In this document: positions 36,139 through 57,216 of the stretch, in pieces
How positions within the stretch are numbered: position 1 is the stretch's first letter
Layout: each line of letters begins with the position of its first letter
Assembly (NCBI GenBank): GCA_964526175.1
Contig: CAZGIV010000001.1
Location: 882 to 64,881 of the forward strand
Direction of reading: 5' to 3'
Origin: an uncultured Thermoplasmatales archaeon
Lineage (GTDB): Archaea; Thermoplasmatota; E2; DHVEG-1
Length of the DNA: 64,000 nt
Program-made: the position numbers and the translations under genes
Notes under the pieces: generated by a model
Seen by the model: only the letters and a program-made list of their open reading frames with translations
What the model was told of the DNA's origin: nothing
Database searches by the model: none

Positions 36139-36163
36139 ACGATCTTGTTATGAGGGAGTAATT

Positions 36164-38306: not shown

Positions 38307-38787
38307 TTCAAAAAAATTAGATCCGAATTTTAAATATGAAGTATCTGCAGAAATTGGTGGAACAAATATTAATCGATGTTTCGCCTGTGGAACCTGTACC
38401 GCAGGATGCCCCGTCCGTGAGATTGATGAAAAATATAATCCACGAAAAATCATCCACATGGTATTGCTTGGGATGAGAGAACGTGTATTAAAAAGTGATT
38501 TCATCTGGCTCTGTTCTACCTGTTACACTTGTTATGATCGATGCCCGCAGGATGTACAATTAACCAGCATTATGACCGCATTAAAAAACATCGCGGCGCG
38601 TGAGGGATATATCCATCCGTCCTTTAAGGAACAAAACCGTCTTGTAAGCACCTTTGGACGATTATATGAAGTCGAAGATTTTGATAATAAAAAACGAGAG
38701 AAACTAGGTCTACCCCCTATACAAAAGACATTTGAAGATCTCACAAAACTTATGCATGATATGCTACCAAAAGAGGTGACGAAATGA
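38299..38787 (+). CDS. hdrC: Heterodisulfide reductase subunit C-like
   Basis: CFACGTCTAGCP...CSTCYTCYDRCP. The likely start is ATG 38299 (SD GGAGG 8 nt upstream), overlapping the lplA-like stop by 8 nt. The ORF track begins at 38266. Confidence 0.65.
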   Translation: MIDSKKLDPNFKYEVSAEIGGTNINRCFACGTCTAGCPVREIDEKYNPRKIIHMVLLGMRERVLKSDFIWLCSTCYTCYDRCPQDVQLTSIMTALKNIAAREGYIHPSFKEQNRLVSTFGRLYEVEDFDNKKREKLGLPPIQKTFEDLTKLMHDMLPKEVTK

Positions 38788-39665
38788 GATATGCACTATT
38801 CCTTGGATGTACAATCCCGGTTCGAGGGCAGAACTATGAACTGTCAGCACGTGAGGTTGCAAAAAAACTTGACATTGATTTTCTTGATGTCCCAGAATTC
38901 TCCTGCTGCGGGTTTCCCGTAAAATCATCCAATTATGAGGCGTCATTATTAATTGCAGCACGGAATTTAGCGATCGCTGCTGAAAAAAAAGAAAAAATCT
39001 GTACGTTATGTAACGCATGCACCTCGGTTCTGACTGAGGCGAATAAGGAATTGACAAAAAATAAAGAACTCAGAGAAAAAATCAACAAGGAACTTGCAAC
39101 AGTTGATAAAGAATTCAAACCAGGAGTCGAAATTAAACATTTCTCACGGATTCTTTATGAGGACATCGGCATGGATGCCATTCGAGAAAAAATTAAAACA
39201 GATCTGAGCAAACTCAGTATGTCGATTCATTACGGGTGCCATTACCTCAGACCCTCAGAATTATATGATTGTTTCGATGATGCAGAAAACCCATCGACGG
39301 TCGAAAACCTTGTGGCAGTGACGGGAGCCGCAGTCGTTGATTATAAAAACAAGTTAGATTGTTGTGGAGGAGCGATTCTTGGTGTAGAAGAAGACATCGC
39401 GTTGTCCATGGCGAAACAGAAACTCGATCATATCACCGCAAACAAGGTTGATGCATTAGTCACCATTTGTCCGTTTTGTTCAATTATGTATGAGGATAAC
39501 CAGAAGAAAATTGAAACAAAATTCAATGTGAATTATAACCTGCCGGTGTTGTATTATCCACAGGTACTTGGTCTTGCGTTAGGAGTTGATCCAAAACAAC
39601 TCGGGTTCCGACTCAATAAAGTTCGACCAACAGCAATTCTTGAAAAACTCGGGGTGACCCTGTAA
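38784..39665 (+). CDS. hdrB: Heterodisulfide reductase subunit B-like
   Basis: ALFLGCTIPVRGQNYE...SCCGFP...CCGGAILG is the CCG signature. Overlaps hdrC by 4 nt. Confidence 0.7.
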   Translation: MRYALFLGCTIPVRGQNYELSAREVAKKLDIDFLDVPEFSCCGFPVKSSNYEASLLIAARNLAIAAEKKEKICTLCNACTSVLTEANKELTKNKELREKINKELATVDKEFKPGVEIKHFSRILYEDIGMDAIREKIKTDLSKLSMSIHYGCHYLRPSELYDCFDDAENPSTVENLVAVTGAAVVDYKNKLDCCGGAILGVEEDIALSMAKQKLDHITANKVDALVTICPFCSIMYEDNQKKIETKFNVNYNLPVLYYPQVLGLALGVDPKQLGFRLNKVRPTAILEKLGVTL

Positions 39666-42600
39666 TGAAAAACTCTTCGAAATCTGGTAAAATAGGCTCA
39701 GTTCTCGTAGTTGGCGGCGGTATTGGAGGCATGCAAGCTGCCCTTGATCTCGCTGACTCCGGGTTTAAAACCTATCTGTTAGAGGAAAAACCAGCGATTG
39801 GTGGAGTCATGGCCCAACTCGATAAAACATTTCCAACCAATGATTGTTCTATGTGCATTCTTTCCCCGAAACTCGTAGATGTGGGCCGACACCCAAATAT
39901 CGATTTAATTACATATGCTGATTTGCAAGAAATCACAGGGAACAGCGGGAATTTTCAAGTGAAAATTCGTAAGAAAGCAAGTTATGTAGACTCTGAGAAA
40001 TGCACAGGGTGCGGTGAATGTGCAGAAGTCTGCCCGGTAGTTCTTGAGTCTGAGTTTGATGAAGGCTTATCCGATCGTCATGCAATCTATAAAATGTATC
40101 CTCAAGCTATTCCTAATGTCTTTACTATTGATAAAATCGGGATCCCGCCGTGCATGAATGCATGTCCGGCGAATGTGAATGTTCAGGGATACGTTGCATT
40201 GATTCGGGAGGGAAAATTCCAGGAAGCCGCGGATCTTATCCGTGAACGTAATCCATTCCCGGGAGTCTGCGGAAGGATTTGTACCCACGTCTGCGAGGAG
40301 AACTGTAATCGGAAGGAAATTGATGAAGCAGTCGCTGTTCGAGCCTTGAAACGATTTGCTGTTGATTATGAACGGCTCCATGGCCGTAAAGAGACAAAGA
40401 AAAAGAAAAAACAGGTTGAATTACGTGGACAAAACCGTAAAATAGCAGTAATCGGCTCTGGTCCTGCTGGGTTAACGGTTGCATATGATCTTGCGAGAAT
40501 GGGGTATCACCCAACTGTTTTTGAGGCACTCTCACAAGCAGGGGGAATGCTTCGGGTTGGTGTTCCGAATTATCGTTTACCACCAGAAGTCCTTGATTAT
40601 GATATTAAAATAATTCAGGAGGAAGGAGTAGAAATTCGAACGAATACTCCGATAGGTCCTGATCTGACGTTAAATGATTTACATAATGCAGGATATGAAG
40701 CTGTTTTTATTGCGATTGGGACGCATAAAAGCAAGAAACTCGGGATCGATGGTGAAGAATTAGATGGTGTTGTGCACGCAGCAGGATTCTTGCATGATCT
40801 GGGAAGTGGAAAAAAGGTTGATTACGAGGGAAAAATTGTTGCGGTTATCGGCGGAGGAAATGTTGCGATTGATTCGGTCCGAACCGCACTCCGACTGGGA
40901 GCAAAAACAGCATTTGTTATTTATCGTCGTTCTCGTACTGAAATTCCTGCGAATAAAGAGGAATTAGAAGAATGCGAGCGTGAAGGTATTTCGTTCTATT
41001 ATCTAGCTGCACCAACAAAAATCCTGGGTAAAAAAGGGAAGGTAACTGGGTTAGAATGTGTCCGAATGAAACTTGGTGAGCCTGATGATACTGGTCGGAG
41101 ACAAGCCATACCAATAGAAGGCTCAACGTTTACTCTTGATGCTGATGTGGTGATCTCAGCAATTGGCCAAGCACCGCTCTTATCCCCGCTTGCGGAAGCG
41201 GAAGTTGAGTTAGGGTTAAACAAAGAAGGTATCGTTTCTGTTCCTATTCAGAACCTTGAATTAGAAGGCGTCTATGGTTTCACCGCTTTTCTACGTGCCC
41301 TTAGCATGGGTCAGAAAATCGAAATTGGGAAAAAAGTTATTGTTGTCGGAGGGGGAAACGTTGCAATTGATGTTGCTCGGTCAGCACGACGTATCGGAGC
41401 AAAGGAAATCCACCTCATGTGCGTTGAATCCCATGAGGAGATGCCTGCATTTGATTATGAAATTGAAGAAGCAGAACAAGAAGGAATCATTATTCATACG
41501 AGACGGATGCCAAAACGAATCATCGGAGTCGGTGGTCGTGCAATTGGCGTCGAAACCCTCCAGTGTACGTCTGTGTTTGATGAAAAAGGGCGGTTTAACC
41601 CTCAGATCCGACCAAATACTGAATCAGTTATTGAAGCAGATACCATCATCGTTGCTATCGGTCAGGAAGTTGACTATACACTTCTAAAAGCAGCAGATGG
41701 TGTCCTGGTCACAAAACGTGGGTTACTCCAAGTCGATAATTTAACGTATCAAACGAATATCCCCTGGATTTTTGCTGCTGGTGATGCAGTGGTTGGACCA
41801 GGGCTTGTCATTGAAGCAATCGCGCAGGGCCATGAGGCAGCAATCTCCATTGATCGACATCTCAATGGGGAAGAACTATATGAGGGAAGACCCGGAAAAG
41901 AACATATTGTAGCCCCGAAACCTGATAAAAAATTTGAAAAAAAACCTCGGGTGACAATCCCTAAACTTGATGTTGAGAAACGTGTCGAATCTTTTGAAGA
42001 AGTAGAACTTCCGTTAACAGAGGAACAGGCTCGTCTAGAAGCTCAACGGTGTTTAAGTTGTAATTTCTGCTCAATTTGTAAACAATGTGTTGAAGCATGT
42101 GAAGCAGACGCAATCGATCATGATATGAGTGAAAAAATCATTGAACTGAATGTTGGATCAGTGATTTTTGCACCAGGATATGAATTATTTGATGCAACAT
42201 TGAAAAGCGAATATGGGTATGGACGATATAGAAACGTGCTCACATCACTTGAGTTTGAACGAATCCTGTCTGCATCAGGACCATACGCTGGCCATGTGGT
42301 CCGACCGTCTGACCAGAAAGAACCACGAAAAATAGCGTGGATACAATGCGTTGGATCACGTGATAACGCTTGTGGGAAAAATTATTGTTCATCGGTCTGT
42401 TGTACATACGCGATTAAAGAAGCAGTCATAGCAAAAGAACACGCACCCAACATTCAACCAACCATTTTTTATATGGATATGCGCACCTACGGGAAAGGCT
42501 TTGAATCATACTATAATCGCGCGGAAAAAGAATACGGTGTCAGATTTGTCCGATGTCGTATCTCCTCAGTCGAAGAGGATAAAAAAACCAAGAATCTCTC

Positions 42601-44632
42601 AATCAAATATGAAACAGAGGAAGGAACCCTGAAAAAAGAGGACTTTGACCTGGTGATTCTCTCGGTTGGTTTTACCTCCAAAGAGACCATGAAGGATTTA
42701 GCAAAAAAAGTAGGGATATCCCTTAATGAGTTTGGGTTTTGTCAAACCCCTGAGTTTGAACCGCTTGATACCGCACGTCGAGGTGTGTTTGTTTGTGGTG
42801 CTTTTTCAGGTCCAAAAGATATCCCTGAAACAGTCATGGAAGCATCAGGTGCTGCAGCAAAAGCAAGTAGTGTGATCGCTTCAGAACGAAACACGCTTGT
42901 TGAAAAGAAAGAATACCCGCTCGAGCGAGATGTCTCCGGCGAAGACCCAAGGATTGGGGTGTTCATTTGTCATTGTGGGATAAACATTGGAGCATATGTG
43001 AATGTTGAATCAGTGGTTGATTACGTAAAATCGCTGCCAAATGTGATGTATGCTGAAGAGAACCTCTACACATGCTCAGAGGATACGCAACGCAAGATTA
43101 TAGAAAAAATTAAGGAACATAAGTTAAACAGAGTCATTGTTGCTTCGTGTACTCCGCGGACCCATGAACCATTATTCCAAGAAACAATTCGGGAAGCAGG
43201 ATTAAATCCTCATCTTTTTGAGATGGCAAACATCCGAGATCAGTGCTCCTGGGTGCATATGAAGGAGCCAAAAGAGGCAACAGAGAAAGCAAAAGGGATT
43301 GTGAGAATGGCAGTCTCAAAAGCGCGCCTGCTTGAACCGATACAGACGATTGAATTGAATGTGACGCAGAAAGCATTAGTAATTGGTGGTGGACTTGCTG
43401 GGATGATAGCAGCACTCACAATTGCTGACCAAGGCTTTGAAGTGTTCCTTGTTGAAAAAGAAAAAGAACTGGGGGGCAATCTTCAGAATATTTCATGGAC
43501 TCTTGAGGATCATGATGTCAGGCCATACATGAGATCAATCGTTGAAAAAGTAGAGAAACACCCAAAAATCAAGGTGTTTAAAAAAGCAACGGTCGATAAG
43601 GTCGATGGATATGTTGGGAATTATACGACAACGCTGAAGAATGGTGCGACAAAAGTCAAAATTGAACATGGTATAATCATTGTCGCAACAGGAGCCGAAG
43701 AGTATAAACCAACAGAATATTTGTATGGGAAAAACAATCATGTCATGACACAGTTAGAGCTCGAGAAACATCTTGCTACTGGTACCGGGTTTGGCAAAAA
43801 TACTATTGTGATGATTCAATGTGTCGGTTCCCGGGAAGAAAACCGACCGTATTGTAGTAGAATCTGTTGCACTGATGCGATTAAAAATGCGTTGAAAATT
43901 AAAGAACGGCACCCAGATACAGAAATTTTCATTTTATATCGTGATATGCGAACCTATGCGTTCCGGGAAACATACTATGAGAAAGCACGTGACAAGGGTG
44001 TTCTTTTTATTCGTTTTGATAAAGATCAGAAACCAATAGTGAAAAAAGGAAAAGATGGTCTGGAAATCGAAACACGAGATATCATCCTTGGAGAAAAACT
44101 GTTGATTCATGCGGATTATCTGATTCTGAGCTCTGCGATTATTCCTGCAACGGATAATGAGCAGCTGGCAAAAAAACTGAAGGTTCCTCTGAATGAAGAT
44201 GGATTCTTTTTAGAGGCGCATGTGAAACTTCGACCTGTTGATTTTGCAACAGAAGGTATTTTCCTAACCGGTATGGCACATTCTCCAAAATCGATTACGG
44301 AAACAATTGCGCAATCCTATGGCGCAGCAGCTCGAGCGTTAACGATCATTTCGAAAGATAAATATTACACGGATGCACCCATCGCATGCGTCAGTGAAGA
44401 CCTGTGTAGTGGTTGTGGTGTCTGTGAGAAGATATGTCCATATAATGCGATAGAGATGGTTGCTGTTTCCAAGGATGGAAAAGAGGGGAGAGTGTCCCGT
44501 GTTATTGAAGCAGTATGTAAGGGTTGTGGGAGTTGTATTGCAGCGTGTCCGTCAGGTGCGATAGATCAGAAAGGATTCAAGCGGGAGCAAATCATTTCTA
44601 TGGTTGATGCAGCGGCAGAACAGGGTACATAA
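39665..44632 (+). CDS. hdrA: Giant HdrA fusion (1655 aa): an N-terminal HdrA-like FAD/ferredoxin module containing an inserted GltD/NfnB-like NAD(P)H-binding module, followed by a complete canonical HdrA
   Basis: VLVVGGGIGGMQAALDLADSGF...DKTFPTNDCSMC...CTGCGECAEVCP. GltD-like N-domain ...CPANVNVQGYVALI...NPFPGVCGRICTHVCEENC.... Rossmann folds KIAVIGSGPAGLTVAYDLARMGY and VIGGGNVAIDSVRTALRLGAK. Then ...YCSSVCCTYA.... Canonical N-domain RIGVFICHCGINI...CTPRTH...ANIRDQCSWVH. ALVIGGGLAGMIAALTIADQGF. C-terminal CSGCGVCEKICP...CKGCGSCIAACPSGAI. Confidence 0.7.
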   Translation: MKNSSKSGKIGSVLVVGGGIGGMQAALDLADSGFKTYLLEEKPAIGGVMAQLDKTFPTNDCSMCILSPKLVDVGRHPNIDLITYADLQEITGNSGNFQVKIRKKASYVDSEKCTGCGECAEVCPVVLESEFDEGLSDRHAIYKMYPQAIPNVFTIDKIGIPPCMNACPANVNVQGYVALIREGKFQEAADLIRERNPFPGVCGRICTHVCEENCNRKEIDEAVAVRALKRFAVDYERLHGRKETKKKKKQVELRGQNRKIAVIGSGPAGLTVAYDLARMGYHPTVFEALSQAGGMLRVGVPNYRLPPEVLDYDIKIIQEEGVEIRTNTPIGPDLTLNDLHNAGYEAVFIAIGTHKSKKLGIDGEELDGVVHAAGFLHDLGSGKKVDYEGKIVAVIGGGNVAIDSVRTALRLGAKTAFVIYRRSRTEIPANKEELEECEREGISFYYLAAPTKILGKKGKVTGLECVRMKLGEPDDTGRRQAIPIEGSTFTLDADVVISAIGQAPLLSPLAEAEVELGLNKEGIVSVPIQNLELEGVYGFTAFLRALSMGQKIEIGKKVIVVGGGNVAIDVARSARRIGAKEIHLMCVESHEEMPAFDYEIEEAEQEGIIIHTRRMPKRIIGVGGRAIGVETLQCTSVFDEKGRFNPQIRPNTESVIEADTIIVAIGQEVDYTLLKAADGVLVTKRGLLQVDNLTYQTNIPWIFAAGDAVVGPGLVIEAIAQGHEAAISIDRHLNGEELYEGRPGKEHIVAPKPDKKFEKKPRVTIPKLDVEKRVESFEEVELPLTEEQARLEAQRCLSCNFCSICKQCVEACEADAIDHDMSEKIIELNVGSVIFAPGYELFDATLKSEYGYGRYRNVLTSLEFERILSASGPYAGHVVRPSDQKEPRKIAWIQCVGSRDNACGKNYCSSVCCTYAIKEAVIAKEHAPNIQPTIFYMDMRTYGKGFESYYNRAEKEYGVRFVRCRISSVEEDKKTKNLSIKYETEEGTLKKEDFDLVILSVGFTSKETMKDLAKKVGISLNEFGFCQTPEFEPLDTARRGVFVCGAFSGPKDIPETVMEASGAAAKASSVIASERNTLVEKKEYPLERDVSGEDPRIGVFICHCGINIGAYVNVESVVDYVKSLPNVMYAEENLYTCSEDTQRKIIEKIKEHKLNRVIVASCTPRTHEPLFQETIREAGLNPHLFEMANIRDQCSWVHMKEPKEATEKAKGIVRMAVSKARLLEPIQTIELNVTQKALVIGGGLAGMIAALTIADQGFEVFLVEKEKELGGNLQNISWTLEDHDVRPYMRSIVEKVEKHPKIKVFKKATVDKVDGYVGNYTTTLKNGATKVKIEHGIIIVATGAEEYKPTEYLYGKNNHVMTQLELEKHLATGTGFGKNTIVMIQCVGSREENRPYCSRICCTDAIKNALKIKERHPDTEIFILYRDMRTYAFRETYYEKARDKGVLFIRFDKDQKPIVKKGKDGLEIETRDIILGEKLLIHADYLILSSAIIPATDNEQLAKKLKVPLNEDGFFLEAHVKLRPVDFATEGIFLTGMAHSPKSITETIAQSYGAAARALTIISKDKYYTDAPIACVSEDLCSGCGVCEKICPYNAIEMVAVSKDGKEGRVSRVIEAVCKGCGSCIAACPSGAIDQKGFKREQIISMVDAAAEQGT
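42251..42654 (+). repeat. Gene-conversion tract shared with the paralogous hdrA at 50095-50498. The core 42395-42654 is 100% identical at nucleotide level. A ~58-nt divergent patch at 42337-42394 interrupts it.
   Basis: Direct comparison of the two copies: 260 consecutive identical nucleotides, flanked by only protein-level similarity. The encoded peptides are identical (...CCTYAIKEAVIAKEHAPNIQPTIFYMDMRTYGKGFESYYNRAEKEYGVRFVRCRISSVEEDKKTKNLSIKYETEEGTLKKEDFDLV). Confidence 0.8.
43163..43293 (+). repeat. Second gene-conversion tract: 131 nt identical to 51007-51137 in the paralogous giant hdrA
   Basis: Identical nucleotide string encoding ...HEPLFQETIREAGLNPHLFEMANIRDQCSWVHMKEPKEATEKAK in both genes. 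Flanks differ. Confidence 0.8.
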
Positions 44633-44701
44633 AAAAAAAATATATGCGTCTCATAGTTCTACATGCATGACATAATGGGGTGCTGAGCGGATGGCGAAGG
44701 T

Positions 44702-45130
44702 ATGACTGAGCGATTTGAACCATCGATTCTTGCATTTTTGTGTAACTGGTGCAGTTATGCAGGAGCAGATCTTGCTGGTACTAGCCGGATGCAGTACCCG
44801 ACGAATGTGAAAATAATTCGGGTGATGTGCTCTGGTCGGGTGAATCCTTCCTTTGTGTTAAATGCGATGCAGAGTGGTATTGATGGTGTTATTATTGGAG
44901 GATGTCATCCAGGGGAATGTCACTACAACCAGGGGAATTATCTCACACGACGTCGTATTACTCTGCTCAAACTGCTCCTAGAATACGTCGGGATTGACCC
45001 TCGTCGTGTTCAAATGACCTGGGTGTCTGCTTCCGAAGGTGGTAAATTTGCTGAGGTGATGAAAAAGGTTACTGAGGAGATTCGAAAGCTTGGTCCCATT
45101 CAGCAAATAAAAAGGAGTAATGAATGGTAG
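44702..45130 (+). CDS. mvhD: MvhD-like [2Fe-2S] subunit (second copy)
   Basis: ILAFLCNWCSYAGADLAGTSR...IRVMCSGRVNP...GCHPGECHY. Confidence 0.7.
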   Translation: MTERFEPSILAFLCNWCSYAGADLAGTSRMQYPTNVKIIRVMCSGRVNPSFVLNAMQSGIDGVIIGGCHPGECHYNQGNYLTRRRITLLKLLLEYVGIDPRRVQMTWVSASEGGKFAEVMKKVTEEIRKLGPIQQIKRSNEW

Positions 45131-46077
45131 AGATTTCGCAAATTCAAGCAGAAGCAAGAAAAATTTTTGATACCTATGACGTGCAATATATTTTAGGGTA
45201 TTCAAACGAATCGTTCGGGATTCAGCCTGTACCGTTTTTTGCGAAAAAGAAACCGGATGTCAACCATCTTATTTTCTCTCCGTTTTGTGTGAATAATCTT
45301 ACGATGTATCTGAAAAATTATGAGGGAAATGAAAAAATTGGTATTGTCGTGAAAGGTTGTGATAGCCGCTCATTAATCCAATTAATTATAGAAAAGAGGA
45401 TACCTCGTGAAAATCTTGTCATTATTGGAATCTCTTGCGGTGGCGTTATCGATCAGAAAAAATTTCAAACCAAGTTCCCCGATGTTATCGGCTCAGTAGA
45501 TGTTGTAGAAAAAGATGACCTGTTTATTTTCACCATTGCTGGAAAGAAGCATCAGGTTTCAAAGAAAGAAGTTCTGTTAGAGAAATGCATCCATTGTGAG
45601 TACCCTACTCCGTTGCTGTATGATGTTCTTCTGGGAGAAAAAAAACAGCCTTTTAAATCGGAGAGTTATTCTGATGTGAAACAAATTGAGGCAAAATCCC
45701 TTCAGGAGAAATGGAATTTTTGGGAAAAACAGTTTAGTCGTTGTATCCGATGTTATGCGTGTCGAAATATCTGTCCAGTCTGTTTTTGTAAAGAGTGTTC
45801 AGCTGAGCAGTTAAACCCGCAATGGCTGAGACGGTCAGTAACAATTTCAGAAAACACGGTATGGCATTTGACAAGAGCGTTACATGTTGCTGGACGCTGT
45901 ACAGGATGTGGTGAATGCGAACGCGTTTGTCCAATGAGTATCCCATTAATGTTGCTCAATAAGAAAATGCTCAAAGAGGTAAAAGATTTATTTGAGTATA
46001 CGCCAGGAATATCTGTTGATGCTAAACCTCTTCTCGCTGCCTATAAACCCGATGACCCAGAGGATTGTATCATTTAG
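45124..46077 (+). CDS. FrhB/FdhB-family-like Fe-S (flavo)protein
   Basis: The N-terminal region (...KIGIVVKGCDSRSLIQLI...ISCGGVIDQ...) resembles the FrhB-type fold. C-terminal Cys clusters CIRCYACRNICPVCFC and CTGCGECERVCP. The call rests on recalled family features only. Confidence 0.35.
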   Translation: MVEISQIQAEARKIFDTYDVQYILGYSNESFGIQPVPFFAKKKPDVNHLIFSPFCVNNLTMYLKNYEGNEKIGIVVKGCDSRSLIQLIIEKRIPRENLVIIGISCGGVIDQKKFQTKFPDVIGSVDVVEKDDLFIFTIAGKKHQVSKKEVLLEKCIHCEYPTPLLYDVLLGEKKQPFKSESYSDVKQIEAKSLQEKWNFWEKQFSRCIRCYACRNICPVCFCKECSAEQLNPQWLRRSVTISENTVWHLTRALHVAGRCTGCGECERVCPMSIPLMLLNKKMLKEVKDLFEYTPGISVDAKPLLAAYKPDDPEDCII

Positions 46078-46085
46078 GTGAATGA

Positions 46086-47108
46086 ATGAAAAGCTATACG
46101 ATAAAAAAAGATAAAGTATCTGATTTTATTTCACATCTGATAAAGAAGAATATTGTCTGGGGGCCAGTAAAGCAAGACGATACCATTATCTATAAACAAA
46201 TCAACACACCTCAGGAGATAACCCTTGATTTTTTAAAGGTAAAAATACCACCGAAAACAATTGTTTTTCCTCAAACAGAGACGTTAGTACGCTTTCATAA
46301 AGAAAAAGACGTCACGACTGAGACACCATCACCCGAAAAAAAGGACGCCATTATCTTTGGAGTTAGACCCTGCGACGCAAAAAGCTTCCTTCTTTTTGAT
46401 GCAGTGTTCAAAGGTGATTGCGAAGACCCGTTTTATTGCTCAAAAAGAGCTACGACAATTTTGATTGGTCTAACATGTATAAACCCACCAATGAATTGTT
46501 TTTGTTCAAGCGTTGGAGGAAACCCTGATGATCCAAGCGGGCTTGACATTCTCCTCACTGATATGACAGATTCATATTATATGGAGATTATTACTGAACG
46601 AGGAGAACACCTCCTAAAGGATTTTATCGGACGTACAGAAGCAACTCAACAAGATACGAAAAAGAGAGACACCATCTGTACGCAAGCCAAAAAAAGTATC
46701 AAACGTCAGGTTTCTGTTGAACGTATCGATTCAATTCTTGATGCAATCTTTGACTCGCCATACTGGGAAACCATAGCACAACGATGCATTGGATGTGGAA
46801 TCTGTACGTTTCTATGCCCAACCTGTCATTGTTTCGACATCCAGGATGAATCATCACAAAACAAAGGGGCACGTGTTCGCATCTGGGACTCCTGTATGTT
46901 CTCAGAATACTCGTGCCATGCCTCTGGGTATAACCCACGAGCGACACAAATGAACCGAGTGCGAAATCGGATCTATCATAAATTTAATTATCTTCTTAAA
47001 AACAATCAGGTTCTAGGTTGTGTAGGATGCGGAAGGTGTATTGACGAATGCCCTGTTCATATTGATATTGTAGAAATTATCAAGAATGCACGGGGGGTGA
47101 AACAGTAA
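46086..47108 (+). CDS. Sulfhydrogenase/anaerobic sulfite reductase beta (HydB/AsrA-like) Fe-S subunit
   Basis: CIGCGICTFLCPTCHCFD and CVGCGRCIDECPVH. Paralog of the minus-strand gene 55411-56451. Confidence 0.55.
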   Translation: MKSYTIKKDKVSDFISHLIKKNIVWGPVKQDDTIIYKQINTPQEITLDFLKVKIPPKTIVFPQTETLVRFHKEKDVTTETPSPEKKDAIIFGVRPCDAKSFLLFDAVFKGDCEDPFYCSKRATTILIGLTCINPPMNCFCSSVGGNPDDPSGLDILLTDMTDSYYMEIITERGEHLLKDFIGRTEATQQDTKKRDTICTQAKKSIKRQVSVERIDSILDAIFDSPYWETIAQRCIGCGICTFLCPTCHCFDIQDESSQNKGARVRIWDSCMFSEYSCHASGYNPRATQMNRVRNRIYHKFNYLLKNNQVLGCVGCGRCIDECPVHIDIVEIIKNARGVKQ

Positions 47109-47941
47109 AAAACCCGTACCTACCTCTCCCGGCAACCATTGAACATATCGTTGAAGAAGTTGGTGGGCAACGAGCGATTAAAACATTCCGGTTAGTTTTT
47201 ACAAATGTAAAAAACAAGCAGGAGTTTGCCTTTCGTCCAGGTCAATGTGTCATGGTTGGTCTTTTAGGAATCGGAGAATGTATGTTTGCGATCTCATCGT
47301 CTCCGACAAAGAAAGAGTTTGTTGAAATAAGTGTCATGAGACATGGGAAAGTTACCAATGCATTGCATAATTGTAAACCAGGGGATTCTGTTGGAATCCG
47401 CGGCCCCTATGGCAATGGCTTTCCTGTTGACAACTGGAGGGGAAAAAACCTCGTATTTATCGGTGGAGGAATCGGCCAAGCACCACTCCGGCCAGTCATT
47501 CAATATGTGATTAATAATCGAAAACAGTATGGAACTATCGATATTTTTTATGGTGCAAGAACCTCGCAAGAGCTTTGTTATAAAAATGAATTTATTGAAT
47601 TAGAAAAACATACTGATTTAAACGTTCATCTCTCAGTTGACAGCGAAGAAAAAGAATGGAAGGGGTTCACAGGGTTTGTTCCTGAAAATCTTAGAAGGAT
47701 AAAACCAGCAGCAAAAAACAGTATTGCAATTACCTGTGGCCCTCCTATAATGATTAAAATCGTTATCGATAATCTCATTCACCTTGGTTTTCCTGAGACG
47801 AATATTTTTACCACGTTGGAAATGAGGATGAAATGCGGTATCGGGAAATGCGGCCGATGTAATGTTGGTCCATTGTATGTCTGTAAGGACGGACCAGTGT
47901 TTTCCTATGATCAATTACACCATATCAAGGGAGAACGATGA
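47105..47941 (+). CDS. Sulfhydrogenase gamma / AsrB / PyrK-like FAD-NAD(P)H oxidoreductase subunit with a C-terminal [2Fe-2S]. The 5' boundary is unresolved: the conserved N-terminus has no canonical start codon.
   Basis: Homology to the paralog (MKNEYQFYPAIIKKIVKE...) begins at (V)KNPYLPLPATIEHIVEEV, encoded from 47105. The codon there is GTA and overlaps the upstream TAA stop. There is no in-frame ATG/GTG/TTG until Met 47252. NAD/FAD motifs GGGIGQAPLRPV. C-terminal CGIGKCGRCNVGPLYVCKDGPVF. Confidence 0.5.
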   Translation, partial: VKNPYLPLPATIEHIVEEVGGQRAIKTFRLVFTNVKNKQEFAFRPGQCVMVGLLGIGECMFAISSSPTKKEFVEISVMRHGKVTNALHNCKPGDSVGIRGPYGNGFPVDNWRGKNLVFIGGGIGQAPLRPVIQYVINNRKQYGTIDIFYGARTSQELCYKNEFIELEKHTDLNVHLSVDSEEKEWKGFTGFVPENLRRIKPAAKNSIAITCGPPIMIKIVIDNLIHLGFPETNIFTTLEMRMKCGIGKCGRCNVGPLYVCKDGPVFSYDQLHHIKGER

Positions 47942-50900
47942 ACGAATCTCAACGAAATGCCAACGGAAAAAAACCTGTGGAAAAACCATCTAAGGTCGTT
48001 TCACAAGTACTTGTCGTCGGGGGCGGGATTTCCGGCATCCAAAGTGCTCTTGATTTAGCGAATTCGGGTTTTAAAGTATATCTTGTTGAAAAGAAGCCAA
48101 GTATTGGGGGAGTCATGGCGCAACTGGATAAAACATTTCCTACCAATGATTGTTCCATGTGCATTCTTTCTCCTAAGCTTGTTGAATCTGGACGACATCC
48201 GAATATTGAAATATTAACAGGTTCAAATGTCGAGCAGGTGAACGGACAAGCAGGTCATTTTCAGGTCACCATACGAAAACACTCCCGGTTTGTAGATATT
48301 GAAAAATGTAAAAGTTGTGGGGATTGTCGTGATGTGTGCCCGGTCATTCAGTCGAATGTGTTTGAAGAAAAGTTGTGTAACCGGAATGCAATCTATCAAT
48401 TGTTTCCTCAGGCAAACCCAAGTGCATATGTGATTGAAAAACAAGGGGTTTCTCCGTGTCGGATAGCTTGCCCAGCTGGACTAAATGCGCATGCATTCAT
48501 CGCGCTTGCATCACAAGAAAAATACGCAGAAGCATATGAACTTATCAAAGAGACCATACCGCTCCCAGGTTCACTTGGTAGAATCTGCTATCATCCTTGT
48601 GAAACTGAATGCAACCGAAAAGATATCGAAGAACCACTCTCCATATGTCGGATTAGACGATTTATTGCTGATTACATGTATGAACATCCAGAGACACTTT
48701 CTGACTATCAAAAAAATAAAAACGAAAAACAACTAGAAAGAAATCAAAAAGGAAGGGGCAACGATCAGAAGGTGGCAATAGTAGGTTCTGGTCCTGCTGG
48801 TATTACTGCTGCGTATGACCTCTCCAAATTAGGATATAAACCTACTATTTTCGAAGCAGAAAAATACAATGGAGGAATGCTCCACTACGGAGTACCAGAC
48901 TACCGACTCCCAAAAGAATATCTTCATAAAGAAATCGACCTCCTCTGTCAAGATCAGCAAATTGAGCTAAAAAACAATCAAAAACTCGGCAGAGACTTCA
49001 CCTTACAAGACCTAAAAAAACAAGGATATAAAGCAATCTTCCTTGCCATCGGTGCTCATAAAAGCCGTAGTGCAGGAATCGAAGGTTGCACTGGAACCGA
49101 CACCTGTGCCCTCGAAGGAGTCGAATATCTCAAGCAACTCAATCGAAATATGATCACCCTAGATTACTTCAAAGGAAAAAAAATCCTTATAATCGGCGGT
49201 GGAAACGTTGCGATGGATTCCGCACGAACCGCCCGGCGACTCGGAGGAAACGTTACTGTCGTCTATAGACGAACCATCAAAGAAATGCCCGCGCACCAGG
49301 AAGAAATCAACCAAGCGGAAGAAGAAGGTATCGAGTTTATCTTTCTTACCGCTCCAACACAACTTCAAAAAAGAGAAAAAGAAACATGTCTCCAGTGCGT
49401 GCGAATGGAACTCGGGGAACCAGATGCTTCTGGACGACGTCGTCCTAAAAAAATTCCAGAATCAGAATTTGACATTTCATGCGATTTTACTATCTTTGCC
49501 ATCGGACAGGAACTTGACACAAAACTCATGGAAGAAAACAAAATTGATATTGGCGAAAACAGGTTCATCAAGGTTGACCCTATCACCTTGCTAACATCAC
49601 AAGACGGGGTCTTTGCTGGTGGAGACGCCGTCACCGGACCAGCATCAGCAGTTGAAGCTATTGCTGCAGGTCACCAAGCCGCGATCTCCATCGACCGCTA
49701 CCTCCACGATGAAGATCAGAAAAAAGGACGAGAACCTCAACCACAAAAGAAAGCTGATATTCCGAAACAAACAATCCATATCCATTCCTCCAGAGAAACT
49801 CCCCTTTTTTTATCCCCTGAAGAACGGATAAAATCCTTTGTCGAAATCGATCAAGGATTCACCAAAGAACAATTCCAACGCGAAGTAAAACGATGCCTCA
49901 ATTGCGCAGGATGCTGCGAATGCTTCCAATGTGTTCAGCATTGTGAACCTGATGCCATTGATCATACTATGAAAGATAAAACAATAACCTTAGATGTCGG
50001 ATCGATTATTCTTTCTCCAGGTTTCGATGAATTTCAACCTGAAATAAAACGGGAGTACGGTTATCGTCGTTTTCCAAATGTTATCACAAGTATCGAGTTT
50101 GAACGAATCCTGTCTGCATCAGGACCATACGCTGGTCATGTGGTCCGACCGTCTGACCAGAAAGAACCACGAAAAATAGCATGGATACAATGTGTCGGAT
50201 CAAGAGATGTGAAATTGAATAAAAATTATTGTTCATCAGTCTGTTGTACATACGCGATTAAAGAAGCAGTCATAGCAAAAGAACACGCACCCAACATTCA
50301 ACCAACCATTTTTTATATGGATATGCGCACCTACGGGAAAGGCTTTGAATCATACTATAATCGCGCGGAAAAAGAATACGGTGTCAGATTTGTCCGATGT
50401 CGTATCTCCTCAGTCGAAGAGGATAAAAAAACCAAGAATCTCTCAATCAAATATGAAACAGAGGAAGGAACCCTGAAAAAAGAGGACTTTGACCTGGTTG
50501 TGTTATCTGTCGGCCTTAGTTCCCCTGATGATGCTGAAAGTCTTTCCACTGTTTTTGGGGTTAAACTCAATCAGTATAATTTTGCTTCAACAACCTCATT
50601 CGAACCATTCCATACCACCACATCAGGTATTTATGTCGCTGGAGCGTTTTCCGGTCCGAAGGATATTCCCGAGACAGTCACCCAAGCGAGTGGCGCAGCA
50701 GCTTTAGCATCCGCTCTTCTTTCAAAAGCCAGAGGGGATTGTGTGACAGTGAAACAATATCCTCCATTAAAAGACGTACAATATTCAACACCCCGAGTTG
50801 GTGTGTTCATTTGCCACTGTGGAAGCAACATTGGAGGGTTCCTTGATGTCTCTTCGATTACTGAATATTCAAAAAACCTTCCTTTTGTCGTCTATGCGGA

Positions 50901-52473
50901 AAATAACTTATTTACTTGTTCTCAGGATACACAGACCCATATCAAGGACATCATTAATGAGTATGATATTAACCGGGTCGTTGTTGCTTCATGTACACCA
51001 CGAACTCATGAACCATTATTCCAAGAAACAATTCGGGAAGCAGGATTAAATCCTCATCTTTTTGAGATGGCAAACATCCGAGATCAGTGCTCCTGGGTGC
51101 ATATGAAGGAGCCAAAAGAGGCAACAGAGAAAGCAAAGGATCTTCTTCGAATGGCGGTTTCAAAAGCAGCATTATTACAACCGTTACCAATCGTAACACT
51201 GCCCGTGAATCAAAATGCGTTGGTGATCGGTGGTGGACTTACTGGATTAATCGCTTCAGTCAAGTTAGCTGAAGAAGGTTTCCCCGTGTATTTAGTTGAG
51301 AAAGAAAAAGAACTTGGTGGGAACCTCCGACATATTTATTCGACAATTAATGGAGGAGATGTACAATCATTCCTTCATAATTTAATTCAGAAAGTTAAGG
51401 ATAATTCCCACATTCATGTTTTCACAGACACACAAATCGATTCTCTCAACGGCTATGTCGGCAATTTTACAACCGTTATTAAGAATAGGAATGATACCAA
51501 GGAATTGCACCATGGAATTATCCTAGTAGCAACCGGTGCACAAGAATATCAGCCCTCTGAGTATCTTTATGGCAAAGATACACGAGTCCTTACGCAACGT
51601 GAATTTGAACAACTGTTGACAAAAAAAGAAGTTCCTGTACAAAAACCAGAAACCATTGTGATGATTCAATGCGTTGGCTCCCGAGATGAGCAACGACCGT
51701 ATTGTAGTAGAATCTGTTGTACAGAGGCAATAAAGAACGCATTAAATTACTCAGATCAAAACAAAAACGCTGCTATTTACGTGTTATATCAAGATATCCG
51801 GACATATGGGTTCAGAGAGGAATATTATCAAAAGGCACGAGAAAAAGGGATTGTCTTTCTTCATTATACCCCTGAGAAAAAACCAATCGTGCAGAATACG
51901 AATGGAAAGCTAACGATACGTATATACGATGTTATTTTAGGTGAGGATGTTCTCATTGACGCTGATTATTTGGTGTTAAGCACAGGAATAATTCCCCTGC
52001 CCGAGAATCAGTTGTTATCAAAGCTTCTTAAAGTTCCATTGAATGAAGATGGATTCTTCTTAGAAGCACATGTGAAACTCCGACCAGTGGATTTTGCAAC
52101 GGATGGGATCTTTCTTGCGGGTTTTGCGCATTCTCCAATGTTTATTGAAGAAAGTATTGCACAAGCCTGCGCTGCTGTCTCTCGTGCTTGTACGATTTTA
52201 AGTAAAGAATCACTGAAGCTTCCTGGAACAATCGCTAAGGTCAATGAAGAGCGATGTGCCGGTTGTGGGTTATGCGAACAGGTTTGTGTCTACAAGGCCA
52301 TTGAACTGGTAAAAAAGAAGATAAAAGGTAAAGAGCAGTTAGTCGCGATCGTCAATGAGGGGATATGTAAAGGGTGCGGGGTATGTGCAGGTGCCTGTTT
52401 TTCAGGAGCAATCACCCATAGAGGGTATAAAGATGAACAAATCCTTGCTATGATACACTCAATGGAAAAATAA
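47938..52473 (+). CDS. hdrA: Second giant HdrA-GltD fusion (1511 aa). It has the same architecture as 39665-44632 and carries two tracts converted against that gene.
   Basis: VLVVGGGISGIQSALDLANSGF...NDCSMC.... GltD-like KVAIVGSGPAGITAAYDLSKLGY and IIGGGNVAMDSARTARRLGG. ...YCSSVCCTYA.... N-domain RVGVFICHCGSNI...CTPRTH...ANIRDQCSWVH. ALVIGGGLTGLIASVKLAEEGF. C-terminal CAGCGLCEQVC...CKGCGVCAGACFSGAI. Confidence 0.7.
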   Translation: MNESQRNANGKKPVEKPSKVVSQVLVVGGGISGIQSALDLANSGFKVYLVEKKPSIGGVMAQLDKTFPTNDCSMCILSPKLVESGRHPNIEILTGSNVEQVNGQAGHFQVTIRKHSRFVDIEKCKSCGDCRDVCPVIQSNVFEEKLCNRNAIYQLFPQANPSAYVIEKQGVSPCRIACPAGLNAHAFIALASQEKYAEAYELIKETIPLPGSLGRICYHPCETECNRKDIEEPLSICRIRRFIADYMYEHPETLSDYQKNKNEKQLERNQKGRGNDQKVAIVGSGPAGITAAYDLSKLGYKPTIFEAEKYNGGMLHYGVPDYRLPKEYLHKEIDLLCQDQQIELKNNQKLGRDFTLQDLKKQGYKAIFLAIGAHKSRSAGIEGCTGTDTCALEGVEYLKQLNRNMITLDYFKGKKILIIGGGNVAMDSARTARRLGGNVTVVYRRTIKEMPAHQEEINQAEEEGIEFIFLTAPTQLQKREKETCLQCVRMELGEPDASGRRRPKKIPESEFDISCDFTIFAIGQELDTKLMEENKIDIGENRFIKVDPITLLTSQDGVFAGGDAVTGPASAVEAIAAGHQAAISIDRYLHDEDQKKGREPQPQKKADIPKQTIHIHSSRETPLFLSPEERIKSFVEIDQGFTKEQFQREVKRCLNCAGCCECFQCVQHCEPDAIDHTMKDKTITLDVGSIILSPGFDEFQPEIKREYGYRRFPNVITSIEFERILSASGPYAGHVVRPSDQKEPRKIAWIQCVGSRDVKLNKNYCSSVCCTYAIKEAVIAKEHAPNIQPTIFYMDMRTYGKGFESYYNRAEKEYGVRFVRCRISSVEEDKKTKNLSIKYETEEGTLKKEDFDLVVLSVGLSSPDDAESLSTVFGVKLNQYNFASTTSFEPFHTTTSGIYVAGAFSGPKDIPETVTQASGAAALASALLSKARGDCVTVKQYPPLKDVQYSTPRVGVFICHCGSNIGGFLDVSSITEYSKNLPFVVYAENNLFTCSQDTQTHIKDIINEYDINRVVVASCTPRTHEPLFQETIREAGLNPHLFEMANIRDQCSWVHMKEPKEATEKAKDLLRMAVSKAALLQPLPIVTLPVNQNALVIGGGLTGLIASVKLAEEGFPVYLVEKEKELGGNLRHIYSTINGGDVQSFLHNLIQKVKDNSHIHVFTDTQIDSLNGYVGNFTTVIKNRNDTKELHHGIILVATGAQEYQPSEYLYGKDTRVLTQREFEQLLTKKEVPVQKPETIVMIQCVGSRDEQRPYCSRICCTEAIKNALNYSDQNKNAAIYVLYQDIRTYGFREEYYQKAREKGIVFLHYTPEKKPIVQNTNGKLTIRIYDVILGEDVLIDADYLVLSTGIIPLPENQLLSKLLKVPLNEDGFFLEAHVKLRPVDFATDGIFLAGFAHSPMFIEESIAQACAAVSRACTILSKESLKLPGTIAKVNEERCAGCGLCEQVCVYKAIELVKKKIKGKEQLVAIVNEGICKGCGVCAGACFSGAITHRGYKDEQILAMIHSMEK

Positions 52474-52483: not shown

Positions 52484-53782
52484 TTAATGTGTTGAACAGG
52501 AGATACATGGGTCGTATGCGCGAACAAGCATTTCACATTTCAGTTTGATTTCTTCAACTGGTTCATCAAGCATTGTACCTAAAAACTCATGCATATCTTT
52601 CTCAACGTTGTTTGCATTGTGTGCTGTTGGAGGAACGAGGTCCGCTTTTCGTATGATACCATTGTTATCTAGTACATAACTATGGTAGAGGCTTCCTCGT
52701 GGTGCCTCAGTGATTGCAGCACCAAATCCTGCGCGACATCCGATGTCCCAATGTTCTTCTTTGAGGGGGACGCGATCGATGATGTCTATAGATTCGTCGA
52801 TACTATCAACGAGTTCGATGGCACGTGCAAGATGTGAGACGAATGGATTGTAATTAGGGAATTTCACCCCACTTTTCTTTGCTGCCTCCTTCGCATCCGA
52901 TGAAAGTTGCCCAAAGTTCAAGTTCACTCTGGGAAGAGGCCCAACCATGAATGAACCTTTTGTTTTCAATTGAGAGTGAAGCGCTGTCGAATAAGGGACT
53001 TGTTTTTCAGAAATATAGTCACGGTATTCAGACTCATGAATGTTTAATCCTTCTGTGGATCGTAAACGACCGATGTTTATGGCATATGATTTTGGATTAG
53101 AAATCGCGATGTGCTCACATTTACGAACAAATTGAGGTATTTTTAATTTGGAGAAAAGATCTACGGTCTCAAACGCATCATTTTTTGCTTCAACCAAACG
53201 TTTACGTATTGCCTGGAGTTTGTTTTTGTTTGGTAGAGCAGTAAATCCTCCGACGACAGCAGTCACAGGGTGTACCGCCCGGCCACCAATCAAATCAGAG
53301 AGGTCATTTCCAAGTTTTTTCAGTTTGAGTCCTCTTTTTATGACATCCAGATGATCCTTCGTCATCGCAAGAGTACTCTCATAGCCGAGAAGATCAGGAA
53401 GTGAAAGGAAATACATGCTAAGCACATGACTTTGAATGTGCGCACTGAGTGCAAGTAGTTTTCGTAAATCCTTTGTTTGCTCACTTGGTTCTAAGCCTAT
53501 CGCATTTTCCACAGCTCGTAACGCAGTGATTTGATGAGCAACAGGACAAATACCGCATAGACGAGAGGTTAACTCCATCATTTCCGTATAACGTCGTCCA
53601 ATAAGGAAAGCTTCAAAGAATCGCGGTGGCTCATGTATTCGAAATTGTAAATCCTGTATCTTTCCTTCTTTTGAAATACTTATATTTAAAGCACCCCGTC
53701 CTTCCACTCGGGCGATGTAGTTCACTTCGATTGTTTTTGTTTTCGGTGTAGATTCTTTAAGGGTCATAGAATTTTCGGTCAT
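52484..53782 (-). CDS. [NiFe] hydrogenase large (alpha) subunit, group 3b/sulfhydrogenase-like
   Basis: ...ARVEGRGALNI..., RLCGICPVAHQITA, C-terminal DPCISCSTH. Last gene of the minus-strand beta-gamma-delta-alpha operon. Confidence 0.7.
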   Translation of the reverse strand: MTENSMTLKESTPKTKTIEVNYIARVEGRGALNISISKEGKIQDLQFRIHEPPRFFEAFLIGRRYTEMMELTSRLCGICPVAHQITALRAVENAIGLEPSEQTKDLRKLLALSAHIQSHVLSMYFLSLPDLLGYESTLAMTKDHLDVIKRGLKLKKLGNDLSDLIGGRAVHPVTAVVGGFTALPNKNKLQAIRKRLVEAKNDAFETVDLFSKLKIPQFVRKCEHIAISNPKSYAINIGRLRSTEGLNIHESEYRDYISEKQVPYSTALHSQLKTKGSFMVGPLPRVNLNFGQLSSDAKEAAKKSGVKFPNYNPFVSHLARAIELVDSIDESIDIIDRVPLKEEHWDIGCRAGFGAAITEAPRGSLYHSYVLDNNGIIRKADLVPPTAHNANNVEKDMHEFLGTMLDEPVEEIKLKCEMLVRAYDPCISCSTH

Positions 53783-54544
53783 TTAATGTCCTGCCTCCTT
53801 GCGAAAATCTGCAGTCATCCCAGCATATTTCCTGAACTTGCGTTGTATGTCATCTTCGTGAACTCCTATTTCTTTAAAGATAGCAGCGAGTGCAGCAGCA
53901 TTTGGATTGCTCATTGGTCCATAACAGCCCTCGCATTCTCTACCAAGAGACGGACATATCGCACCGCATCCTGCGCTTGTCACAGGTCCCATACACGGTA
54001 TTTTTTTACTTGTTATGAGACATTCATTATCTCTAAATTTACACTCAACGCAGACCGGATGTTGACGGAGGCGTGGTCTGATGTTGAGCAGCGATGCTTT
54101 CACAAACTCAAGGATGGTGTTACGATGAGGAGGACAGCCTCTCAACTCGGTATCCACTTTTATATATTCTCCGATTCCCATCACTTTCATTGAATGAATC
54201 GTTGATGTATCCGGATATACTCTATTTTCTGCTTCCATCTGTGGAATCCAATTTCGAATGGAAGGAATGCACCCGGCTATTGCACAGTCACCGAATGCCA
54301 CAACAATCTTGGATTTTTTCCGTATCTGCTTGATTTCTTCAATTTCTTCAGGTGTTGAAATCCCACCCTCGACAAGGCTGATATCCCATGGCCCGTCAAT
54401 GTTGTCACGTTTCACCATCATCCAGTAGGTGATGTCAATCACATCAAGAAGTTTTAGAAAAACGTCTTCTAAATGCAAGAGTTCTAATTGACATCCTGCG
54501 CATCCGGTGAACTTGAAGATTCCAACTTTTGGTTTCGTGCTCAT
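53783..54544 (-). CDS. [NiFe] hydrogenase small (delta) subunit, group 3-like
   Basis: FKFTGCAGCQLELLHL is the proximal-cluster motif. Multiple C-terminal Cys ligands. Abuts the large-subunit gene with no gap. Confidence 0.6.
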   Translation of the reverse strand: MSTKPKVGIFKFTGCAGCQLELLHLEDVFLKLLDVIDITYWMMVKRDNIDGPWDISLVEGGISTPEEIEEIKQIRKKSKIVVAFGDCAIAGCIPSIRNWIPQMEAENRVYPDTSTIHSMKVMGIGEYIKVDTELRGCPPHRNTILEFVKASLLNIRPRLRQHPVCVECKFRDNECLITSKKIPCMGPVTSAGCGAICPSLGRECEGCYGPMSNPNAAALAAIFKEIGVHEDDIQRKFRKYAGMTADFRKEAGH

Positions 54545-54561
54545 AGTGTTATTTCAACCTC

Positions 54562-55392: not shown

Positions 55393-55410
55393 GGTTGCCT
55401 GTTGTATAGG

Positions 55411-56688: not shown

Positions 56689-57216
56689 ATGAGCATCATC
56701 GATTTAACATCAATGGGAGCGTCACAGTCAGACCTCAGAAACGAAATCAATAATCGATTATCGAAACTACAGGATGAGATCTCAGAGTACTGTTATCAAT
56801 GCGCGAAATGCACCTCTGGATGCGAAGCCCATAAACTACTGGAATTAGAGCCACATAAAATAGTTGCACTTCTGAAAAGAGGCTTGATTAATGAACTTGT
56901 TAACAGTGATGTCATCTGGACATGCATGACTTGTTTGAAATGCAGGGAGCGATGCCCACAACGAGTTGCTCCTGTTGAAGTCCTCTTCGCACTGAAAAAC
57001 ATGGCAGTCGCCAGCGGGAAACAAATTCCTGGGAAATACACTGCAATGCTCCAATCCATTCTTACTATGGGTCTCATCCAGGACATTCAGCAAATTTCGA
57101 CCAGAAGTAACACAACGGTGAAACGAGAAGACCTTAATCTTCCACCCCTTTCAAAACCTGTTGACGCTACGAAATTTCAAGCAGGAATAATGAAAATCGC
57201 TATGGAGAAGATTTAG
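56689..57216 (+). CDS. hdrC: Heterodisulfide reductase subunit C-like (third copy)
   Basis: CYQCAKCTSGCE...CMTCLKCRERCP. Confidence 0.7.
   Translation: MSIIDLTSMGASQSDLRNEINNRLSKLQDEISEYCYQCAKCTSGCEAHKLLELEPHKIVALLKRGLINELVNSDVIWTCMTCLKCRERCPQRVAPVEVLFALKNMAVASGKQIPGKYTAMLQSILTMGLIQDIQQISTRSNTTVKREDLNLPPLSKPVDATKFQAGIMKIAMEKI

Follow-up and report, generated by a model that had tools for sequence, protein, structure and literature searches.

A probable Flx-Hdr gene cluster with giant HdrA genes in a Thermoplasmatota archaeon

The genes at positions 44702-47941 (plus strand) of a 64,000-nucleotide (nt) stretch of contig CAZGIV010000001.1 from an uncultured Thermoplasmatales archaeon (this whole stretch is called the window below) very probably constitute flxDCBA, the Flx (Flox) flavin-oxidoreductase module of an Flx-Hdr complex in a Thermoplasmatota archaeon. 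An earlier inspection of the letters and reading frames alone (the sequence-only reading) had described here a plus-strand sulfhydrogenase beta/gamma-like pair lacking delta and alpha subunits and lying between mvhD and a second giant hdrA, and all of these genes were found on the plus strand. Its proposal that the pair serves the Hdr module and not a hydrogenase, as an entry or exit point for NAD(P)H, is supported by synteny, by phylogeny and by the motifs retained in FlxA. It did not recognize that this is the FlxABCD-HdrABC (Flox-Hdr) system, a type already described, whose known host range and architecture are extended by the window.

Gene order and relatives of the Flx proteins

Window genes and domains were defined from a listing of open reading frames (ORFs) together with Pfam, NCBIfam and PDB sequence searches. 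The flx genes belong to a tightly packed nine-gene unit (38266-52473) that lies entirely on the plus strand, with neighbouring genes either overlapping by 1-7 nt or separated by gaps of no more than 69 nt. The features of this unit and the hydrogenase operon that faces it are as follows (product lengths in amino acids, aa).

38266-38787, plus strand: hdrC-like gene, 173 aa, 2x[4Fe-4S] dicluster (Pfam Fer4_8/9/17)
38784-39665, plus strand: hdrB-like gene, 293 aa, two CCG domains (Pfam CCG, 2e-26, in two stretches)
39665-44632, plus strand: giant HdrA no. 1, 1655 aa (Pfam Pyr_redox_2 in five stretches, Fer4_20, FAD_oxidored)
44702-45130, plus strand: flxD, MvhD-like [2Fe-2S] connector, 142 aa (PF02662, 3e-57)
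45124-46077, plus strand: flxC, FdhB/ElpB-like poly-Fe-S protein, 317 aa (PDB 9t1s_M, 8e-30)
46086-47108, plus strand: flxB ('beta2'), Fe-S protein of the HydB/ShyB/AsrA family, 340 aa (Fer4_22, 6e-33)
47092-47108, plus strand: flxB/flxA junction, Shine-Dalgarno-like GGGGGTGA followed by GTAA (read directly from the sequence)
47105-47941, plus strand: flxA ('gamma2'), HydG/PyrK/NfnA-like, most likely 278 aa (NAD_binding_1, DHODB_Fe-S_bind, FAD_binding_6)
47938-52473, plus strand: giant HdrA no. 2, 1511 aa, with a GltD-like insert (Pfam)
52484-56451, minus strand: complete operon for the beta, gamma, delta and alpha subunits of a group-3b-like [NiFe] hydrogenase, convergent to the flx unit

The hdrB start overlaps hdrC by 4 nt, the start of the second giant hdrA overlaps flxA by the same length, and the gene order reads hdrC-hdrB-hdrA-mvhD-flxC-beta-gamma, i.e. 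hdrCBA-flxDCBA. No hydrogenase large or small subunit is encoded within 38266-52473, where the only genes are hdrC, hdrB, hdrA, flxDCBA and hdrA; the hdrB-like product is presumed to be the disulfide-reducing subunit. Matched segment by segment (BLAST) to an ordinary 655-aa HdrA, giant HdrA no. 1 proved to be an HdrA with a GltD/NfnB-like insert for NAD(P)H and flavin adenine dinucleotide (FAD) and a second HdrA-like half (HdrL-like or 'type III' HdrA), and the flx genes are flanked on both sides by giant GltD-bearing HdrAs.

FlxABCD-HdrABC was described in anaerobic bacteria, among them Desulfovibrio (Nitratidesulfovibrio) vulgaris (Ramos et al., 2015, cited via PMC10084766 and PMC12125255). 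In these and related papers the Desulfovibrio cluster has the order hdrCBA-flxDCBA (PMC12125255), the Flx subunits are given as homologues of the Pyrococcus soluble-hydrogenase subunits with no catalytic subunit (PMC10084766), and NADH oxidation is described as coupled with a reduction of ferredoxin and DsrC, the cluster adjoining adh (PMC10084766; PMC4287179, PMC5947623). Our own comparison with the Desulfovibrionaceae rests on a Humidesulfovibrio locus (L058). This locus carries Fe-ADH, HdrC, HdrB, HdrA, MvhD, FlxC, FlxB, FlxA and AOR (aldehyde:ferredoxin oxidoreductase), a run which, with its adjoining Fe-ADH, is the described Desulfovibrio Flx-Hdr arrangement. Its MvhD is 52% identical to window FlxD (157 bits) and its FlxC 34% identical to window FlxC over the full length (200 bits), while FlxB (36% identity) scores 238 bits against beta2 and 147 against beta1 of the window hydrogenase operon, and FlxA (45% identity) scores 274 bits against gamma2 and 228 against gamma1; window HdrC is 34% identical to that of L058. 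By these sequence comparisons the window flx genes are shown to be orthologous to the Desulfovibrionaceae adh-hdrCBA-flxDCBA cluster, with which they share the four Flx proteins, the gene order, the lack of a hydrogenase catalytic subunit and a beta subunit of the same clade. The window differs in having an archaeal host, in the replacement of HdrA by the 1655-aa GltD-bearing tandem HdrA, in the 1511-aa giant HdrA after flxA and in its upstream neighbours, which are GlcD-like, GlcF-like and LplA genes instead of adh.

Among archaea, FlxABCD-HdrABC has been noted in the Asgard group (Imachi et al., bioRxiv 10.1101/726976), and two of the loci surveyed below, L010 (Heimdallarchaeota) and L032 (Promethearchaeota), carry MvhD-FlxC-beta-gamma-HdrA as the window does. 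They represent another phylum, however, and in L010 an ordinary 667-aa HdrA, then HdrC and HdrB, follow flxA. GltD-bearing HdrAs are likewise known, as HdrL in sulfate reducers (PMC5947623) and as type III HdrA in ANME-1 and Bathyarchaeota (PMC12054007); both giant HdrAs of the window have such a GltD-like insert, but here two of these genes enclose a complete flxDCBA set.

The individual proteins agree with this assignment. FlxA retains RGPYG for FAD, GGGIG and CGP for NAD(P)H and, for the [2Fe-2S] cluster, four cysteines (C244, C249, C252 and C260), each of them shared by 90% or more of 87 homologues, and a 68%-identical gamma homologue is named 'heterodisulfide reductase subunit F' by NCBI. 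In the PDB search FlxA matched 9nez_C (4e-63) and FlxB, in which about 14 conserved Cys are retained, matched the beta subunit of Pyrococcus furiosus sulfhydrogenase I (9nez_B, 2e-44). FlxC has a dicluster domain and 16 family-conserved Cys, which would be enough for four [4Fe-4S] clusters; four such clusters are reported for ElpB and FdhB (PMC12350162). Its relatives of known structure are, by sequence, 9t1s_M (8e-30), 7bkb_E (5e-26) and 8rvu_E (3e-25), the last two of which are also the top Foldseek matches of an AlphaFold2 model, although this model (mean predicted local distance difference test score, pLDDT, 62.9, with the C-terminal Fe-S half below 50) is too poor for a flavin site to be judged. 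A 95%-identical homologue of FlxC is labelled 'Candidatus Thermoplasmatota archaeon'. The FdhAB-MvhD-HdrABC (7BKB) and ElpABC-HdrABC (8RVU) complexes, in which FdhB or ElpB is placed between the site of the electron donor and the MvhD/ElpC on HdrA (PMC12350162), have the same kind of poly-[4Fe-4S] subunit beside an MvhD-type connector docking on HdrA, and for the FlxC-FlxD-HdrA part they are the best structural template. In these arms of methanogens the donor is formate or F420H2, whereas the window has a HydB/HydG-type NAD(P)H module before FlxC, and a shorter FlxC in which the FrhB_FdhB_C domain is only partial.

Distribution, phylogeny and alternative readings

The exact beta2 protein is present on several independent Joint Genome Institute (JGI) metagenome contigs (L001-L004). 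Three more distant relatives, L005, L007 and L008, with betas 72%, 65% and 54% identical to beta2, keep the whole series of GlcD-like, GlcF-like, LplA, HdrC, HdrB, giant HdrA, MvhD, FlxC-like, beta, gamma and giant HdrA, and Thermoplasmatales SG8-52-1 (L009) has a variant with MvhD, FlxC-like, beta and gamma followed by HdrAs of 647 and 1212 aa. For a wider view one genome per GTDB species was probed with an alignment of the beta family, and all ORFs of the 80 loci obtained (a sample, not a census) were compared with the window proteins for assignment of context. An MvhD and/or FlxC-like gene lies directly upstream of beta-gamma in 66 of the 80, and many of these MvhD-FlxC-beta-gamma loci have no hydrogenase nearby; hydrogenase delta/alpha genes are found downstream at only 11, L053 has both kinds of beta, and four loci could be given no context class, with L024 cut at a contig end. 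The sequence-only reading had asked whether such pairs occur with hdrA in other genomes, and this is the case in diverse bacteria and archaea: HdrA falls within the fetched stretch at 60 of the 66 Flx-context loci, and a HdrB/CCG protein is also present at 40. A giant HdrA (at least 900 aa) occurs at 18, so that the combination of giant HdrA and flx is not unique to this genome. The bacteria concerned include Desulfovibrionaceae, Syntrophales, Desulfobacterales, Desulforudis, Pelotomaculum, Heliorestis, Chloroflexota, Aminicenantes and Planctomycetota, and the archaea Heimdallarchaeota, Promethearchaeota and Thermoplasmata. The order hdrCBA-flxDCBA recurs in L021, L025, L033, L041, L051, L069 and L082, and among the GTDB matches listed the closest to window beta2 is that of L010 (44% identity).

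A different order was seen in Syntrophaceae/Smithella (L020, L027, L028, L029 and L061), where hdrCB stands between flxC and flxB (MvhD-FlxC-HdrC-HdrB-FlxB-FlxA). This variant is often preceded by a giant HdrA, and L029 and L061 have two flx sets per contig.

In a distance-based neighbour-joining (NJ) tree of 90 betas from the sampled loci, all Flx-context betas separate from all hydrogenase-context betas in 98-99 of 100 bootstrap replicates, with window beta2 on the Flx side and window beta1 on the hydrogenase side. A tree of the gammas divides in the same way, one Altiarchaeales sequence excepted. The AsrA, PyrK and Pyrococcus sequences stand outside the tree and were compared solely through NCBIfam and PDB scores. 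The clustering with hydrogenase-associated HydBG that would have told against the sequence-only reading was not seen, and the NAD(P)H-binding residues that it had proposed to check (GGGIG and CGP) are retained in gamma2.

These data bear directly on the suggestion that beta2/gamma2 are a spare or alternative HydBG of a [NiFe] hydrogenase, either the adjacent group-3b enzyme or one with alpha/delta encoded elsewhere in the genome. The best NCBIfam and PDB matches of the pair are indeed sulfhydrogenase beta and gamma, P. furiosus group 3b HydBG/ShyBC (PDB 9NEZ) sharing homologous folds and cofactor motifs with beta2/gamma2 and giving their best solved-structure matches, and the group-3b operon begins only 10 nt past the flx-hdr unit on the other strand. 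This operon is complete, as the sequence-only reading had it, and its alpha subunit keeps both Ni-binding motifs (RLCGIC and DPCISC); however, it already has its own beta and gamma, and it is beta1/gamma1, not beta2/gamma2, that HydD and HydA adjoin. The pairs are paralogues of old standing, with 31% identity between beta2 and beta1 and 41% between gamma2 and gamma1, beta2 lies apart from all 15 hydrogenase-context betas in the tree, and MvhD-FlxC-beta-gamma does without a nearby hydrogenase in many genomes. The NCBIfam scores are also far too low, at 210 for beta2 against the ShyB equivalog cut-off of 690 and 221 for gamma2 against the HydG cut-off of 650, beta2 being below every NCBIfam equivalog cut-off. 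The spare-subunit explanation is therefore largely refuted and we consider it barely credible. Significant NCBIfam matches to AsrA and AsrB (TIGR02910 and TIGR02911) and the versatility of beta/gamma-type modules would instead allow a stand-alone AsrAB-like or sulfide-dehydrogenase-like NAD(P)H:sulfite, polysulfide or ferredoxin oxidoreductase that is not wired to its hdr neighbours. The scores (170.6 and 193.7 bits) nevertheless do not reach the respective cut-offs (323 and 289 bits), the operon contains no AsrC or siroheme subunit, the gene starts overlap neighbouring stops and the immediate linkage to MvhD and FlxC is conserved across phyla, all of which makes such an enzyme very unlikely.

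A further possibility is that the module works in the manner of Elp or Fdh, with FlxC as the point of hydride entry (from F420H2 or another deazaflavin or flavin donor) and FlxAB as an NAD(P)+-reducing side branch. The nearest structures to FlxC are FdhB and ElpB, which oxidize F420H2 at FAD and feed MvhD/ElpC and then HdrA (PMC12350162), and FlxC matches part of FrhB_FdhB_C, so that with these relatives the label 'FrhB-like' given to the 317-aa protein in the sequence-only reading was a fair one. The match is weak, however (E = 0.009, profile positions 2-113 of 150), the domain profile search gave no match to FrhB_FdhB_N in FlxC, ElpB and FdhB exceed the protein in length by 60-100 aa, and the operon has no FdhA/ElpA-like gene. 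The FlxC family is also found in Desulfovibrionaceae, Clostridia and Syntrophales, which are not known to use F420. With FrhB domains that are incomplete and a family widespread among bacteria not known to use F420, entry of F420 electrons at FlxC is unlikely, and we give this arrangement little credence.

The start of flxA

The gamma reading frame is open from 47066, after an in-frame TGA at 47063-65, and contains no ATG, GTG or TTG between that stop and 47252. An ATG-based call (47252-47941, 229 aa) is short of 49 conserved N-terminal codons, which encode VKNPYLPLPATIEH...FRPGQCV, and gene callers give FlxA products of 219-248 aa in this clade. The ratio of nonsynonymous to synonymous differences (pN/pS) in the 49 codons is 0.2-0.45 against L005, L007 and L008, with pS up to 0.85, and this part of flxA is under purifying selection. 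At the position homologous to the start, ATGA is found in L009, GTGA in L007, ATAA in L005 and L008 and GTAA in the window; in all five a GGAGGTGA-like sequence precedes the codon by 4 nt, and the codon overlaps the stop of beta (in the window, GTA at 47105 overlaps the TAA stop of flxB), and the protein of the relative P0245 begins MKNPYLP at this position. A change of the beta stop from TGA to TAA turns the overlapping start into ATA or GTA. Judged from these alignments, flxA most likely comprises 47105-47941 (278 aa) starting at GTA, with the predicted N-terminus M/V-KNPYLPLPATIEH, and its translation would involve initiation or re-initiation at a non-canonical codon. The gamma ORF of the sequence-only reading thus stands as to its presence and range, but not as to its ATG-based start at 47252, the real start probably being 47105, which is within the range then reported.

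Other explanations for the missing start codon were tried. A sequencing error in the G6 run was rejected, as the identical sequence is found in four independent assemblies and relatives without a G run have the same start problem. Fusion of beta and gamma through a programmed -1 frameshift is possible on the G6 run of the window and on the A run of L008, but was rejected as a shared explanation because L005 has no slippery site. The upstream in-frame ATG chosen by gene callers in P0241 and P0243 is blocked in the window by the TGA at 47063-65, and recoding of TGA was rejected because TGA terminates 16 of the 54 window genes. Loss of the start codon could also mean that gamma is decaying to a pseudogene and that the module is non-functional in this lineage, and the lack of a canonical start and the short products of the gene callers are as would be expected in that case. 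Against decay are the conservation of the 49 codons across four lineages, whose synonymous sites differ by as much as about 80%, at the pN/pS values given above, the strong Shine-Dalgarno-like sequence 4 nt upstream of the homologous start in all relatives compared, and the frame, which is intact to the normal C-terminus; we regard loss of function as most improbable.

Electron path, neighbouring genes and significance

By analogy with the structures of Mvh-Hdr, Fdh-Hdr and Elp-Hdr and with the studies on Desulfovibrio, electrons in the Flx-Hdr complex may follow the path outlined here; that Flx and Hdr physically associate is something we infer, as are the direction of electron flow, the preference for NADH or NADPH and the disulfide substrate. 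A hydride from NAD(P)H would be taken up by the FAD of FlxA, an FNR/PyrK-like protein with a C-terminal [2Fe-2S] cluster, and single electrons would then enter the [4Fe-4S] chain of the HydB-like FlxB, pass onward through the FdhB/ElpB-like FlxC and the [2Fe-2S] cluster of the MvhD-like FlxD and arrive at the bifurcating FAD of HdrA. From HdrA one electron would go uphill to ferredoxin and the other downhill via HdrC and HdrB to a thiol/disulfide couple. The overall reaction would be expected to be reversible (confurcation).

Several points weigh against the assignment of these genes as an Flx-Hdr system working in this way. We know of no biochemistry for any archaeal Flx. DsrC, the disulfide partner proposed in bacteria, is not expected in this lineage, though no search for DsrC was made. 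As both flanking HdrAs have a GltD-like NAD(P)H site of their own, a second entry for pyridine nucleotides is not obviously needed. FlxC keeps about three-quarters of the FrhB_FdhB_C domain and might hold a flavin or F420 site, and flxA in this genome is without a canonical start codon. Finally, the tree is distance-based (NJ), was built from a sample of loci and includes no AsrA or Pyrococcus sequences.

A composite 'Nfn-Hdr hybrid', in which the NfnA/PyrK-like FlxA works with the NfnB-like GltD inserts of both tandem HdrAs and the disulfide might be a lipoylated GcvH-like carrier, was also considered and is unlikely. If it existed, it would have two different pyridine-nucleotide sites, one for NADH and one for NADPH, and its scaffold would carry as many as four HdrA-type flavins. 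NADH, NADPH, ferredoxin and a disulfide could then be coupled in a single machine by way of two linked bifurcation events. The idea of a lipoylated carrier comes from the conservation of LplA directly upstream of hdrCB and from the presence of a GcvH-like gene in the window.

The LplA gene (37203-38306) overlaps hdrC directly downstream and has the same place in L005, L007 and L008, while the gene for the GcvH-like lipoyl carrier (16963-17397, minus strand) lies 20 kb upstream. Together they recall the lipoate-binding proteins of the sHdr systems of sulfur oxidizers and might hint at the disulfide partner. The giant hdrA paralogues have two tracts of about 100% DNA identity (about 42390-42640 vs 50234-50484, some 250 nt, and about 43160-43270 vs 51004-51114, some 110 nt) between flanks that are only 50-65% identical, which looks like gene conversion. 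The independent assemblies L001 and L002 start within the first tract, at about window 42528, as would be expected if assemblers break at the repeat. In L008 a single protein of 646 aa (17099-19039; Fer4_22, FAD_binding_6, NAD_binding_1 and DHODB_Fe-S_bind) is a fusion of the beta and gamma linked to the hydrogenase; its gene lies upstream of those for HydD and HydA and shares its strand with flx.

Altogether the window contains four HdrA genes, three HdrBC pairs and two MvhD genes. A second Hdr block (24135-37267) encodes 2-oxoacid:ferredoxin oxidoreductase alpha, beta and gamma, a 1071-aa tandem HdrA, HdrC, HdrB, MvhG, MvhA (group 3c-like), HycI protease and MvhD, after which come a GlcD-like FAD oxidase and a GlcF/HdrD-like protein with Fe-S and CCG domains. 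A third hdrC-hdrB-hdrA set (56689-60102; 175, 293 and 673 aa), with an HdrA of ordinary size, lies just past the hydrogenase operon and is followed by OsmC and purA. Elsewhere in the window are a lactate racemase (LarA) gene (12207-13475), three genes at 8981-12123 (minus strand) for a DAO-type FAD oxidoreductase with a BFD [2Fe-2S] domain, a Pyr_redox_2 protein and a DUF1667 protein, and archaeal exosome genes. No Pfam match at E <= 1e-5 was obtained for the ORFs (140-419 aa) at 26-532, 4778-5617, 6737-7996, 8184-8906 (minus strand) and 17471-17893 (minus strand).

As Flx-Hdr biology is itself already known, the value of these observations lies in annotation correction, host range and architectural variety. 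The range of Flx-Hdr is extended to the Thermoplasmatota, and the module is often paired with GltD-bearing giant HdrAs in bacteria and archaea alike. The automatic names 'sulfhydrogenase beta/gamma' and 'formate dehydrogenase beta' in benthic Thermoplasmatota are an annotation trap, in that the proteins so named are very probably no parts of a hydrogenase or Fdh but the Flx input module of a heterodisulfide-reductase complex, and metabolic reconstructions of these archaea would then call for NAD(P)H-linked bifurcation or confurcation instead of extra H2 or formate metabolism.

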